21,678 nt of DNA from Bdellovibrionota bacterium (GTDB lineage Bacteria; Bdellovibrionota; UBA1018; UBA923), in NCBI GenBank assembly GCA_040754655.1, contig JBFMCE010000066.1, positions 1-21,678 of the forward strand. The letters are read 5' to 3'. A model generated the notes under the pieces. That model was not told the origin of the DNA, ran no database searches, and saw only the letters and a list, made by a program, of their open reading frames with translations. Below are positions 4,978 to 8,773 of this stretch, one piece after another (the stretch's first letter is position 1; each line of letters begins with the position of its first letter). The position numbers and the translations under genes are program-made.

Positions 4978-5700
4978 ATGGAAAACCTACTGCAACCTGA
5001 CCTGTTGATCGCCCTGCTGACGTTGACCGCAATGGAGATCGTGCTCGGCATCGATAATATCGTTTTCATCGCCATTCTTGTGGCGAAACTACCTAAAGAA
5101 CAGCAAGCCCGCGCGAGAAGCATCGGCATAGGCCTTGCTCTGGTGAGCAGGTTGATTCTCTTGCTTTCGATCACCTGGATCATGCGCTTGACTGAGCCTC
5201 TGTTTCAGATTGCGGACAAGGCTTTTTCTGGCCGCGATTTGATCCTTCTGATCGGCGGTCTCTTCTTGATCGCGAAGGCTACTTACGAAATTCATGAAAA
5301 GCTTGAGGTGGACGGTGAGGAAGCCGCGGTTGCGGTAAAAGGCAAAGGTCGCTTCAAGACCGTCGTTTTTCAGATCGCGCTGCTGGATATCGTATTTTCA
5401 CTCGATTCCGTGATTACTGCGGTAGGCATGGTTCAGCAAATCTCCATCATGGTGATCGCCGTGATTATTTCCATCGCCATCATGCTTCTTGCAGCCGGAA
5501 AGATCAGCGAGTTCGTCCATCGACATCCGACAATTAAGATCTTGGCGCTCTCTTTCTTGGTCCTCATCGGAGTTATGTTGCTGGTTGAAGGCATGGGTGG
5601 GCACGTGAATAAGGGATACATCTACTTCGCGATGGCTTTCTCGCTCATCGTTGAGTTTCTGAACATGCGTTTTCGGAAGAAACAAAAGATAGCGCATTGA
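4978..5700 (+). CDS. TerC family integral membrane protein
   Basis: MEIVLGIDNIVFIAIL and LDIVFSLDSVITAVG signatures, with multiple TM helices. Confidence 0.93.
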   Translation: MENLLQPDLLIALLTLTAMEIVLGIDNIVFIAILVAKLPKEQQARARSIGIGLALVSRLILLLSITWIMRLTEPLFQIADKAFSGRDLILLIGGLFLIAKATYEIHEKLEVDGEEAAVAVKGKGRFKTVVFQIALLDIVFSLDSVITAVGMVQQISIMVIAVIISIAIMLLAAGKISEFVHRHPTIKILALSFLVLIGVMLLVEGMGGHVNKGYIYFAMAFSLIVEFLNMRFRKKQKIAH

Positions 5701-5719
5701 GATAAAGAAGAGACGGCAA

Positions 5720-6013
5720 TTGCGCATTTTATTCTGGGCGGTCGGATCGATCTCCTTTGTTTTTGGCATCGCTGGCATCTTGCTTCCCATCATTCCGGGG
5801 GTACCTCTTCTCTTGTTTTCGCTTTACTGCTTTTCAAGGGCAAGCGAGCGATTTCGAGTTTGGGTGCTTTCAAGGCCCGGCATGGGGGCGGCCATTCAAA
5901 AGATGGAACAGAAAGCTCGCCTGGCTTTTCCTAGCTGGCTTGACGTTTTGTTGGTGGCAATCGCTCTTGGATTTCTTCTTTATTTCTTACTGCGATGGAT
6001 TTGGAAGGGGTAG
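5720..6013 (+). CDS. YbaN/DUF454 family small membrane protein
   Basis: GIAGILLPIIPGVPLLLFSLYCFSRASERFRVW matches the DUF454 pattern. TTG start 19 nt after terC. Confidence 0.75.
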   Translation: MRILFWAVGSISFVFGIAGILLPIIPGVPLLLFSLYCFSRASERFRVWVLSRPGMGAAIQKMEQKARLAFPSWLDVLLVAIALGFLLYFLLRWIWKG

Positions 6014-6074
6014 GCGAGAGCTGTTAGGGGATTGGGGGTATAGGGGGACCAGCTCTCGCCCGTGTTTTGTTACT
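6005..6074 (-). ncRNA. candidate sigma54-dependent small RNA with a C-rich loop (3' end uncertain)
   Basis: Perfect 11-bp stem (6013-6023 with 6050-6060). Minus-strand loop GUCCCCCUAUACCCCCAAUCCCCUAA. Begins about 14 nt downstream of the predicted sigma54 +1 (6074). Confidence 0.5.
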
Positions 6075-6084
6075 ACTATTCTAT

Positions 6085-6214
6085 TTCAAGACGGATGCCA
6101 GATTTTCAGCCAGTAATTTCAACGGTTTGCGAGCGAGGCCCAAAATTGAAAATGTTGAGGGCCTAGTACAAGTGTCGAAACCTTTGACAGGGGCTGCTGT
6201 CAAGCAATGGTACA
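6085..6214 (-). promoter_or_regulatory. putative sigma54 promoter with IHF-like site and tandem enhancer sites
   Basis: Minus strand TGGCATCCGTCTTGAA (6100-6085, GG-N10-GA). TTTCAAcggtTTG (6117-6129, one mismatch to WATCAAN4TTR). TGTC-N9-GACA (6173-6189) and TGTC-N9-TACA (6198-6214). Confidence 0.6.
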
Positions 6215-6227
6215 GCTTAATTTCTTG

Positions 6228-7928
6228 TTATTGGGATGAAGCATGGGCTTGTTTGATGAGATCTTTCGCATGAGCCCTGGATTTTTCGGTAACATTAAGG
6301 CCGCCCAGCATGCGGGCCAGCTCATCCACGCGTTTCTGTCCTTCAAGCAAGGCAACCTGGCTTGAAGTGCGTCCAGAAACCACCTTTTTGCTCACCGAGT
6401 AGTGCGCTCCTGCAAAAGCTGCGACTTGAGGAAGATGGGTAATGCAGATTACCTGGTTGAATTGGGCGACCGATTGCAACTTTCTTCCAACTATTGTTGC
6501 AGTTTGGCCCCCGATCCCTGAGTCGATCTCATCAAAAAGGTAAACACCGATGCCGCCTCGATCGGCCATCGTTCGCCTGATGGCCAACATGACGCGCGAC
6601 ATCTCTCCGCCAGAGGCTATCTTCGCGACGGGTTTCAAACCCTCGCCGGGGTTTGGACTAAATAAAAACTGTATACGATCAACTCCCTCTGGCCCCCACT
6701 GCTCGCTTTCGAGTTGGGTGAACTCGATATCAAAAGAAGTGCCTGGCATCATGAGTTCCCTCAGCTCACTTTGAATGCTTGTCTTGAGGGTCTTCGCAAT
6801 ATTCTTTCTTTTCTTCGAAAGCTCAAGGGCAGCTTCCTGGAAAGATTTCTTCAGCGAAGTCCTTTTCAATTCGAGGTCAGCGATCTTCGACTGCCGGTGA
6901 GCGAGTTCTGAGAACTCTTGCTCGAGCCTTGAGCGTGTCTGCACAATATCTTCAAACGTCATCCCGTACTTGCGTTTGATCTCAGACCACCGAGAGAGTC
7001 TTTCTTCGATCGTTTCAAGCCTTTGTGGGTCGATTTCCAGGTTTGATGCGTATGAGGCGAGTTGGCTAGTGGCTTCTTCGACTTCGAGTTGCGCTCTTCC
7101 AATCGCTTCAATGACTCCTGAGAGAGACGAATCAATCTGAGTGCTTTTCGAAAGTTTTTGGGCCGCTCTTGTCAAGAGGGTTCTGGCGTCGTGTTCTTCA
7201 GAAGAACCTGGGGTCCCTAACAAGGCAAGCGCGTGATCTACTGATTCAATGAGGTTTGTCGCGTTCAATAACTTGCGGCGCTCATTTGTAAGGGCTTCTT
7301 CTTCGCCTTCTTTGGGGTCAAATTCTTCAAGTTCATTTAGCTGAAAGCGCACGAAGTCTTCGTTTCGAGCCCGTTCGCGTTCATCTCCGCCTAGTATTCG
7401 AAGTTCGCTCTCGCAAGAGCGCAACGCCGAGTACAGCTCGCGCACGGCTCGCTTCTTTTCAATGAGTCCTCCGTAACGGTCTAGCAGGTCGAGTTGAAAT
7501 ATCGGTTTTGAAAGGCTTTGGTGTTCGTGCTGCGAACAAAGGTCAACGAGGTTTTCGCAAATATCCGCCAATTGGCTGAGGGTGATGAGTTCGCCGTTCA
7601 AGAAGATCTTGTTCTTGCCGCTTCGGTGGATGGCGCGTTTTACGATGATCTCATGGTCTGCTCGGTGCGTGTCTAACCCATGGGCTTGCAGCTTTTTCTC
7701 AAACGATTCGCTGCGGCCGACATCAAAGAGCGCTTCGACCGTGGCTTCTTCCGAGCCCGTGCGAATGAGCTCGGCCGTCGCTCTGTTGCCTAAGATGAGC
7801 CCAATGGCATCGAGTACGATAGACTTCCCTGCCCCGGTTTCACCTGTGATGGCATTAAGCCCAGCGTGAAATTCAAGTTCCAAGGCATCGATAATGGCAA
7901 AGTTTTTTATACGTAAGAGCCGTAGCAT
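6228..7928 (-). CDS. recN: DNA repair protein RecN
   Basis: Walker A GETGAGKS, QHEHQ, long coiled coil, ASGGEMSR signature, FDEID and ITHLPQVAA. Adjacent to nadK. Confidence 0.96.
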   Translation of the reverse strand: MLRLLRIKNFAIIDALELEFHAGLNAITGETGAGKSIVLDAIGLILGNRATAELIRTGSEEATVEALFDVGRSESFEKKLQAHGLDTHRADHEIIVKRAIHRSGKNKIFLNGELITLSQLADICENLVDLCSQHEHQSLSKPIFQLDLLDRYGGLIEKKRAVRELYSALRSCESELRILGGDERERARNEDFVRFQLNELEEFDPKEGEEEALTNERRKLLNATNLIESVDHALALLGTPGSSEEHDARTLLTRAAQKLSKSTQIDSSLSGVIEAIGRAQLEVEEATSQLASYASNLEIDPQRLETIEERLSRWSEIKRKYGMTFEDIVQTRSRLEQEFSELAHRQSKIADLELKRTSLKKSFQEAALELSKKRKNIAKTLKTSIQSELRELMMPGTSFDIEFTQLESEQWGPEGVDRIQFLFSPNPGEGLKPVAKIASGGEMSRVMLAIRRTMADRGGIGVYLFDEIDSGIGGQTATIVGRKLQSVAQFNQVICITHLPQVAAFAGAHYSVSKKVVSGRTSSQVALLEGQKRVDELARMLGGLNVTEKSRAHAKDLIKQAHASSQ

Positions 7929-7933
7929 CTTAA

Positions 7934-8773
7934 CTAATCACGGTACCCGTATTTGAGCTTTTCCCGCAAGAGCGAATAGTAGTCTCTTTCAAGGGAATGC
8001 AAGATTTTCAAAGGATGCTTCTTATACTTGGTAATCTTGATGACATCACCCGTCTTGATGTCGAGGCTTGTTTGACCATCTAAAGTCAAGATGACCGAAC
8101 CCCCCCGGCAATCGGGCACGAGTTTGATTACTGATGTATCCGGGATGATTAGGGGCCGTAATGTGAGCGAATGCGGGCAAATTGGTGCAATAGCCATAGC
8201 GGGCACGTTAGGAGCAACAATCGGGCCACCTGCTGCGAGGCAGTATGCAGTCGAACCCGTGGGAGTCGAAATAATCAGCCCGTCTGCTTTCATGTTTGTG
8301 ACAAGTAGATCATCGACAAGTACTTGGAGATCGAAGATTCTTGCGATAGCCCCTCTGCTTACTACGATATCGTTGACGATGGGATTTTTAGAGATCAATT
8401 TTCCATTACGCGTCAAAGAGCACTCAAGCATAGTGCGGTGACTGACTTGCAGTTCGCCTTTGAGTGCCGCATGGAGAGCTTGGTACATCTCGGATTTTTT
8501 TACTTCAGTCAAAAAACCTAACTGGCCCATATTCACGCCTAAAAGGGGAACACTGCGCGCAATCATGCGTCGAGCGACGCTAATAAAGGTGCCATCGCCT
8601 CCGAGTACAAGGATCAGGTCGCATTTTTTAATCAAGTCTTCTTTTGAGATTCGCCCGCTGAGGAACACCTTAACCTTCAGTTTTTTAAGAAATGTGGCTG
8701 CATCTGAAGCAAGTTTTCTTGCTTCAGGTAAATTGTGTTTCGTGACAATTCCGACTGTTTTAATTGCAGGCAT
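7934..8773 (-). CDS. nadK: NAD+ kinase
   Basis: LGGDGT, GQLGFL, ND motif, DGLIISTPTGSTAY..AGGP and PICPH. Confidence 0.96.
   Translation of the reverse strand: MPAIKTVGIVTKHNLPEARKLASDAATFLKKLKVKVFLSGRISKEDLIKKCDLILVLGGDGTFISVARRMIARSVPLLGVNMGQLGFLTEVKKSEMYQALHAALKGELQVSHRTMLECSLTRNGKLISKNPIVNDIVVSRGAIARIFDLQVLVDDLLVTNMKADGLIISTPTGSTAYCLAAGGPIVAPNVPAMAIAPICPHSLTLRPLIIPDTSVIKLVPDCRGGSVILTLDGQTSLDIKTGDVIKITKYKKHPLKILHSLERDYYSLLREKLKYGYRD

Follow-up and report, generated by a model that had tools for sequence, protein, structure and literature searches.

The window analysed here comprises 21,678 nucleotides from a Bdellovibrionota bacterium (GenBank assembly GCA_040754655.1, contig JBFMCE010000066.1). 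Within it, an intergenic gap of 214 nt (6014-6227) separates convergent plus-strand and minus-strand genes, which are arranged as follows:

4978-5700, plus strand: terC (TerC), on one flank of the gap
5720-6013, plus strand: ybaN (DUF454/YbaN), on the same flank, with its stop codon TAG at 6011-6013
6228-7928, minus strand: recN (RecN), on the other flank of the gap
7934-8773, minus strand: NAD kinase, beyond recN

The gap harbours a putative small RNA (sRNA) gene on the minus strand, with a predicted transcription start at approximately 6074. Its features, with upstream positions numbered from that start, are:

6214..6198 (-140..-124), minus strand: distal enhancer-like site TGTACCATTGCTTGACA (TGT-N11-ACA; TGTA...GACA), weaker than the proximal one
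6189..6173 (-115..-99), minus strand: proximal enhancer-like palindrome TGTCAAAGGTTTCGACA (TGTC-N9-GACA; TGT-N11-ACA)
6117..6129 (-55..-43), plus strand: IHF-like site TTTCAACGGTTTG, one mismatch from the consensus WATCARNNNNTTR
6100..6085, minus strand: sigma-54 -24/-12 element TGGCATCCGTCTTGAA, TGGCAT-N5-TTGAA, with TGGCAT at 6100..6095
6074..6062, minus strand: 5' leader AGUAACAAAACAC, 13 nt, A-rich and predicted to be single-stranded, its start placed by promoter geometry
6061..6050, minus strand: 5' arm of the stem GGGCGAGAGCUG, from fold and covariation
6049..6024, minus strand: apical loop GUCCCCCUAUACCCCCAAUCCCCUAA, 26 nt with three C-runs, the presumed seed, from fold and conserved C-runs
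6023..6012, minus strand: 3' arm of the stem CAGCUCUCGCCU, from fold and covariation
6011..5996, minus strand: C/U-rich 3' tail ACCCCUUCCAAAUCCA, from sequence, lacking a U-tract in the window copy

An initial annotation of this DNA had placed in the gap a pair of TGT-N11-ACA sites, an IHF-like site, a -24/-12 element and an 11-bp stem exposing three C-runs, with no coding gene downstream on the minus strand. All of these features are present at the positions listed above, and we found no credible minus-strand gene downstream of the RNA element in the window. Two small ORFs, 6081-6203 on the minus strand and 6067-6273 on the plus strand, match no Pfam family and are treated as non-coding. An ARAGORN search for tRNA and tmRNA genes was also negative.

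The -24/-12 element is unlikely to be a chance match: under a composition model, 0.0008 occurrences of TGGCAY-N5-TTGA are expected per 214-nt gap. The -12 element of the window copy is TTGAA (GA) rather than the consensus TTGC, with correct spacing from the GG; at this position TTGAA or TTGTA is seen among the closest relatives, TTGCT or TTGCA among 11 more distant homologues. TGGCA, including its GG, is invariant across a 5-way alignment. No sigma-70 promoter for the window copy was found in 5000-7000. The consensus used for the IHF-like site is the one printed in PMC3045617.

The predicted transcript consists, in order, of AGUAACAAAACAC / GGGCGAGAGCUG / GUCCCCCUAUACCCCCAAUCCCCUAA / CAGCUCUCGCCU / ACCCCUUCC. 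Its 12-bp stem is made up of 11 Watson-Crick pairs and one G-U pair, closes the 26-nt loop and overlaps the ybaN stop codon at its base. The minus-strand RNA folds at -23.1 kcal/mol, compared with -9.95 ± 2.22 kcal/mol for shuffled sequences (z = -5.9; none of 200 shuffles as good), whereas the plus-strand fold is no better than its shuffles (z = -0.09; 85 of 200). No U-tract was seen after the stem in the window copy, and its transcript may run on antisense to ybaN and terC.

The element is conserved among relatives. At the DNA level, a search of 41 genomes (40 relatives and the window's own) matched 6003-6100, from the hairpin through TGGCA, in four genomes of the same family with 73-84% identity, and in two of these the matched stretch is not beside recN. 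A covariance model of the RNA part alone (R1), running from start site to tail with the promoter left out, matches eight of ten family genomes at E <= 0.01. Among the four new strong loci found with this model, G007 accounts for two, G005 for one and G004 for the last, a three-unit tandem array; TGGCAY-N5-(Y)TTG(A/T) lies 16-34 nt upstream of every one of them. Within the order, nine of 116 genomes have R1 matches. Two of the matches, one a two-unit array in G070 and the other a single locus in G019, come from outside the family: both are preceded by a near-perfect TGGCAC/T-N5-TTGCT, and their stems differ from that of the window while the C-run loops are the same.

A second model (R2), built from 11 sequences, matches 22 of 127 genomes of the class, distributed by family as f1 6/9, f3 12/75, f5 1/2, f8 1/1, f11 1/1, f10 0/19 and f13 0/9. 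The f3-type members have a longer stem, ACAAACGGAUUGGCUA...UAGCCAAUCCGUUUGU, beginning a few nucleotides past the predicted start, and carry ACAAAC at the 5' end, pairing with GUUUGU. The 3' ends of homologues consist either of C5 followed by U5-6 (G007, G019, G016) or of GUUUGU followed by C5, and many homologues end with a clear stem and U-tract. Genomes with the RNA contain from one to four copies, some of them in tandem, and the arrays of two to three units in G004 and G070 share one promoter. In an even sample of the phylum, a third model (R3) matches eight of 151 genomes; outside the order there is a single match among about 128 genomes, and it lacks a sigma-54 site. In this sampling, the predicted family is found almost solely within one order of Bdellovibrionota-like bacteria.

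Among the 23 homologues aligned with R2, a scripted search (score of at least 14/16, within 75 nt upstream) found the sigma-54 motif TGGCAY-N5-TTGC/A in 18, at 16-60 nt upstream. Two more were recognized by eye: G003 has TGGCAC-N5-TCGCA, and in G004, where the aligned sequence is the second unit of the array, the promoter lies ahead of unit 1. Of the remaining three, one is cut by a contig end (the G075 locus is so cut), G016 has a poor motif and G073 has none. By comparison, the same motif occurs a further five times in the 122,052 nt of these loci, or in about 0.3% of 75-nt windows. Weak model matches without a sigma-54 site were rejected or treated as doubtful members: G009:C134 and G002:C177 (both weak R1 matches within the family), G088 (a plain terminator), G073 and G179. 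Further upstream, TGTN-N9-NACA is present at 12 of the 23 homologues. The exact IHF consensus occurs at -56..-77 in five of 19 homologous promoters, in one orientation throughout, and with one mismatch or fewer in 11 of 19, against a background of 0.003 per 60 nt for the exact sequence.

The alignments also speak for the stem. In the 23-sequence alignment, standard pairs fill 93.1% of pair cells (31-50% after shifting the 3' partners by one to three columns), 11 of the 12 pairs have changed on both sides and none of 500 column shuffles matches the covariation score; the 11-sequence set gives 93.1% paired, ten of 12 double changes and again none of 500 shuffles, although both alignments were fitted to the structure of the model and the genomes are related, so that these figures overstate independence. 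One stem pair divides by subtype into GC (10) and UA (10). G-U cells outnumber A-C cells (14 to seven), which mildly favours the minus strand. The loop C-runs, typically CCCCC-UA(U)A-CCCCC-(A/U)A(U)-CCCC, stay constant despite complete turnover of the stem (for example, GGCGAGAGCUG compared with GGAUUGGCUAAC), and nearly every one of the 23 aligned homologues retains all three, the middle run being missing in one row. Comparison among relatives thus bears out the combination of stem covariation, C-loops and promoter to which the initial annotation had looked for comparative support, and shows the predicted promoter, stem and C-runs to be one unit, conserved and under selection.

The window's genome carries a second copy of the RNA on another contig (G000:C29:2675-2754(-); R3 match, E = 1.5e-7), located between two plus-strand ORFs. 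This copy folds at -31.5 kcal/mol (z = -6.3) and ends in a U-rich tail. It has the 14-mer loop word CCCCCUAUACCCCC in common with the window copy, and the stems of the two are unrelated. It has no sigma-54 site: a sigma-70-like TTGCTT-N17-TATAAC is found upstream instead, and this element is kept in G015 and G023 as TTGCGA/TTGCAG-N17-TACAAC/TAAAAC. The lack of a sigma-54 site at these three loci indicates that sigma-54 control is not family-wide. The occurrence of the same loop word in two unlinked genes with different stems and promoter types is as expected if the loop is the working part of the RNA.

The genome contains rpoN (216.6 bits), 18 enhancer-binding-protein genes (Sigma54_activat matches above 190 bits) and five genes of the HU/IHF family. 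TGGCAY-N5-TTGMW occurs 70 times in the genome, compared with about 14 expected, and the TGGCAY-N5-TTGA variant occurs 31 times, compared with 14 expected. The relaxed palindrome TGTM-N9-KACA lies 58-125 nt upstream of 14 of 111 sigma-54-like sites, where about 1.5 would be expected; the strict palindrome is not enriched genome-wide (54 occurrences, 58 expected). The first genes at 12 of the 13 other promoters of this set were examined, and all 12 have signal-peptide-like N-termini (four with a lipobox), compared with 813 of 3284 under the same rule (binomial p = 5e-8), both the gene calls and the signal-peptide calls being crude in-house heuristics. Pfam identifies a subtilase, a trypsin-like protein and a sub-threshold cytochrome c7 among these 12, and no family in the other nine. 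At the level of shared enhancer sites, the putative RNA gene is co-regulated with about a dozen exported-protein genes. The two activator candidates sharing a contig with promoters of this regulon (C42, C100) were considered and rejected, as they show no operon link.

Taken as a whole, the region 6214..~5996 of the minus strand is likely a self-contained sRNA gene, driven by sigma-54 and an enhancer, whose C-run seeds pair with G-rich mRNA sites. In this model, an enhancer-binding protein recognizing TGTC-N9-GACA would bind at about -100 to -140, and a DNA bend at the IHF-like site near -50 would bring it to the sigma-54 RNA polymerase at TGGCAT-N5-TTGAA. Transcription from about 6074 would yield an RNA of roughly 70-80 nt, in which a short A-rich leader precedes a 12-bp stem rich in GC; the stem would present a loop of 26 nt with three C4-5 runs and be followed by a C/U-rich tail. 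The C-runs would act as seeds, pairing with G-rich (GGGG) stretches at or near the ribosome-binding sites of several mRNAs and thereby repressing them, probably independently of Hfq in the manner of Xanthomonas sX13. The stem would double as the terminator of the RNA and may do the same for the converging gene on the opposite strand.

Support for targets is weak or negative. The initial annotation had read the element as an unannotated, signal-controlled sRNA that blocks G-rich ribosome-binding sites: the comparative evidence strongly supports an unannotated sRNA gene under sigma-54 and enhancer control with a conserved C-run loop, but when the loop was scored by duplex energy against positions -40..+20 of 3258 ORFs, it performed no better than five shuffled loops. 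GGGG is found at -18..-4 in 238 of these 3258 crude ORFs (7.3%, with a peak at -14..-8), a figure that may be inflated by the inclusion of AAGG in the start-codon rule. No Hfq gene was found in the window's genome, which is 90% complete, so this absence is weak evidence. The exposed C-runs probably pair with G-rich mRNA sites.

Candidate targets were the 20 best-pairing genes among those with two or more G-runs, including one at the ribosome-binding site. Seven of these 20 encode peptidases, nucleases, a nucleotidase or a polysaccharide deacetylase, compared with one of 40 random genes without GGGG in -40..+20 (Fisher p = 0.0013, or 0.0033 with two near-identical nuclease genes counted once); this category was set post hoc, and the result serves as a lead only. 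An M28 peptidase was rejected as a conserved target, as its ribosome-binding site has a 4G motif in three of five sRNA-bearing genomes and in one of three where the sRNA was not found, which does not discriminate between them. It is conceivable, if on the unlikely side, that a sigma-54/enhancer programme for exported proteins, including proteases, in predatory Bdellovibrionota has the C-loop RNAs as its post-transcriptional arm, and that these RNAs gate G-rich ribosome-binding sites that are concentrated on degradative enzymes.

A different function for a genuine RNA would be that of a decoy or sponge, in which the clustered C-runs, multiplied in arrays, titrate a C-binding protein or a G-rich RNA. 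The three to five C-runs per unit and the arrays of two to three units behind one promoter (G004, G070) are reminiscent of sponge RNAs with many sites, no excess emerged from the scan for mRNA targets, and a 26-nt loop is very large and unusual for a seed-type sRNA. Against this, no candidate binding protein was identified: CsrA is present in the window's genome but is known for binding GGA motifs, not C-runs. In addition, known C-run sRNAs (sX13, PMC3771888; 6C, PMC6486639) act by base pairing. We regard the sponge function as improbable.

The genomic surroundings of the RNA bear on whether it acts in trans, as a pairing sRNA would, or locally. The neighbouring gene families all differ at the nine loci examined (DUF454, GT2, N6 methylase, AcrB, CCG/Fer4, ICMT, S13 peptidase, adenylosuccinate-lyase-like and START), and no activator gene lies next to the RNA at any of the nine. 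At eight of them, the gene that comes next on the RNA's strand is a convergent one, whose end in many cases lies within a few bases of the hairpin; at G009, a Peptidase_S13 gene on the same strand as the RNA begins about 30 nt downstream. This variation of the flanks indicates an independent gene, commonly found where a converging gene ends, a position in which its stem could end transcription on both strands. A transcript acting in cis, as an antisense RNA running into ybaN and terC or as the leader of a downstream gene, would agree with the missing U-tract in the window copy and with the gene arrangement at G009. However, the neighbours are not conserved, eight of nine loci have no co-directional gene immediately downstream, many homologues terminate at a clear stem and U-tract, and action in cis would not keep loop words between two unlinked copies in one genome, all of which makes this reading very improbable.

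We find it hardly credible that, as the initial annotation had allowed, the hairpin is nothing but the intrinsic terminator of the terC-ybaN operon on the plus strand and that the sigma-54-like sequence is a chance or cryptic one. In favour of this reading, the ybaN stop codon marks the start of the hairpin, the T-tract CGTGTTTTGTT comes after it on the plus strand (GTGTTTTGTT is present here), and at eight of nine loci a convergent gene ends directly against the element, making a shared or bidirectional role plausible as an extra. Against it, the four closest relatives (G008, G004, G009, G003) lack the T-tract, so that a purely plus-strand terminator fails, the sigma-54 motif keeps a fixed distance at 20 of 23 loci whose neighbours are unrelated, the plus-strand fold does not exceed its shuffles, terminators need no conserved loop C-runs, and a terminator scan did not call the site, its 26-nt loop falling outside the definition used by that scan. 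The hairpin of the sRNA gene may nevertheless additionally terminate terC-ybaN.

With respect to known RNAs, an Rfam 15 scan of 5500-6700 (E <= 10) returned only an unrelated sR51 match at 5502-5530, and a scan of 12 homologous loci (E <= 1) returned three weak matches far below gathering scores. Neither the element nor its homologues match an Rfam family, in keeping with the novelty that the initial annotation had supposed. Judged by these comparisons, the predicted RNAs are a real, previously undescribed sRNA family that combines two known kinds, the sigma-54-dependent and the C-rich-loop sRNAs.

Attack-phase sRNAs and merRNA have been published for Bdellovibrio bacteriovorus HD100 and are, like the present family, small RNAs of a related predator. 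The eight sequences printed for HD100 (PMC3627812, Fig. S1), compared by eye, include no hairpin with a three-C-run loop; three of them have FliA promoters, and a sigma-54 promoter is reported for none. We found no paper linking Bdellovibrio, sigma-54 and an sRNA and, beyond the HD100 attack-phase RNAs, no description of a regulatory RNA with a defined regulator from Bdellovibrio-like bacteria. The family described here offers a putative regulatory address, in which sigma-54 is combined with an IHF-like site and a TGTC-N9-GACA enhancer, together with co-regulated exported proteins, a conserved seed and paralogues under another promoter type. It is as such an entry point to post-transcriptional control in Bdellovibrio-like bacteria, and its covariance model can be used for annotating their genomes.

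RsaE/RoxS and the CcsR/cuckoo RNAs use single-stranded C-rich loops to pair with G-rich regions of mRNAs, and RNAs of the CcsR type occur as tandem hairpin arrays. The C-rich loops of 6C RNA are likewise described as pairing with G-rich mRNA regions, independently of RNA chaperones (PMC6486639). All of these differ from the present RNAs in promoters, regulators and phyla, and no Rfam match connects them with the family.

Pxr of Myxococcus xanthus is described as having three stem-loops, lying always downstream of nla19 and, where it occurs in tandem, having a promoter for each copy (PMC5568312). The window RNA resembles Pxr, as far as it is described there, in being a small RNA with an apparent sigma-54 promoter in a delta-proteobacteria-like predator lineage, with tandem paralogues in some species. 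It differs in having a single hairpin, RecN and YbaN as neighbours, no adjacent activator gene and arrays that share one promoter. The initial annotation was accordingly right to claim no homology to Pxr: the single hairpin, the lack of an adjacent activator at nine loci and the lack of an Rfam match all agree with that caution.

The closest analogue in mode of action would be sX13 of Xanthomonas campestris pv. vesicatoria, reported to have three stems with 4C/5C loops and to repress mRNAs with GGGG near the start independently of Hfq; the 4G motif is found at the ribosome-binding-site position of about 5% of Xanthomonas genes (PMC3771888). As in that account of sX13, C4-5 runs are exposed in an apical loop, and the class of genes with a 4G ribosome-binding site is of similar size (about 7% here, about 5% there). 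In contrast to the three stem-loops of sX13, the window RNA has a single stem and one 26-nt loop carrying three C-runs; it also has a sigma-54 promoter and enhancer, belongs to another taxon and shows no homology to sX13 in sequence or structure (no Rfam match).

In its predicted control, the gene is most like glmY and glmZ of Enterobacteriaceae, which are described as having sigma-54 promoters, TGTCN10GACA sites for GlrR at over 100 bp upstream, and WATCARXXXXTTR sites for IHF between the two (PMC3045617). The N10 spacer of the GlrR palindrome in that description compares with N9 here, no glrK/glrR-like genes are adjacent, there is no GlmY or GlmZ match in Rfam, and the loops here carry C-runs. 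The overall layout is nevertheless shared with glmY and glmZ as presented there: both are sigma-54 sRNA genes with TGTC-N-GACA palindromes upstream and an IHF-like site between enhancer and promoter, and in both, paralogues or orthologues switch between sigma-54 and sigma-70 promoters.

The genome that contains the window (G000) carries a second member of this small-RNA family, and the covariance models also match hairpins with a C-run loop in other genomes, which are listed here with two tandem arrays.

G000:C29:2675-2754 (L097:1501-1580), minus strand: second copy
L021 (G004:C7:23344-23552): three tandem C-loop hairpins, one sigma-54 promoter
L026 (G070:C3:22581-22722): two tandem C-loop hairpins, one sigma-54 promoter
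L045 (G075:C116:18-96): C-run-loop hairpin, truncated by the contig end
L053 (G073:C20): C-run-loop hairpin
L095 (G179:C251:1079-1153): C-run-loop hairpin

The second copy has a long stem and a U-rich tail at its end, and its loop word, CCCCCUAUACCCCC, is identical to that of the window copy. No sigma-54 site was found at this copy; upstream lies a sigma-70-like TTGCTT-N17-TATAAC, which is kept in G015 and G023. A sigma-54 promoter is likewise not visible at L045, L053 and L095, the last of which looks like the terminator of the upstream gene.

On contig C183 of G004 (locus L034), an N6-DNA-methylase gene is convergent with the small-RNA gene and one further gene lies between the latter and recN:

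L034:2361-3551: gene of ~1.2 kb with DUF7168, DUF2786 and SprT-like domains

In the window, the plus strand at 6006-6052 holds four tracts of four or five G (GGGG...GGGG-ATT-GGGGG-TATA-GGGGG); the ybaN mRNA has its 3' end on this strand, which also serves as template for the small RNA. It is conceivable that these tracts form a G-quadruplex.

Sigma-54 promoters of G000 with TGTC-N9-GACA at about -60 to -125 constitute a regulon:

Regulon promoters: contigs C5, C8, C20 (two, divergent), C22, C35, C40, C42, C46, C94, C100 and C135
Promoter with no ORF of ≥50 aa close downstream: G000:C77:1086 (L089), plus strand, TGGCACGTCCCTTGCT

Judging by their sequences, the first genes of the regulon all look to encode exported-type products (12/12). 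Four of the 12 have a lipobox, nine have no Pfam family, and a subtilase and a trypsin-like protein are among them. The C77 promoter, with TGTAAAGGTTTTAGACA 90 nt upstream, stands opposite a converging gene of 466 aa. The first ~240 nt downstream contain no start of an ORF of at least 50 aa; the closest such ORF, of 80 aa, begins at 245 nt. The promoter may serve a further small RNA or small protein of this regulon.

Degradative enzymes, a category set post hoc, make up 7 of the 20 G000 genes with two G-runs in the start region that pair best with the loop, versus 1 of 40 controls. These seven are M28, S8 and trypsin-like peptidases, two bifunctional nucleases, a 5'-nucleotidase and a polysaccharide deacetylase.
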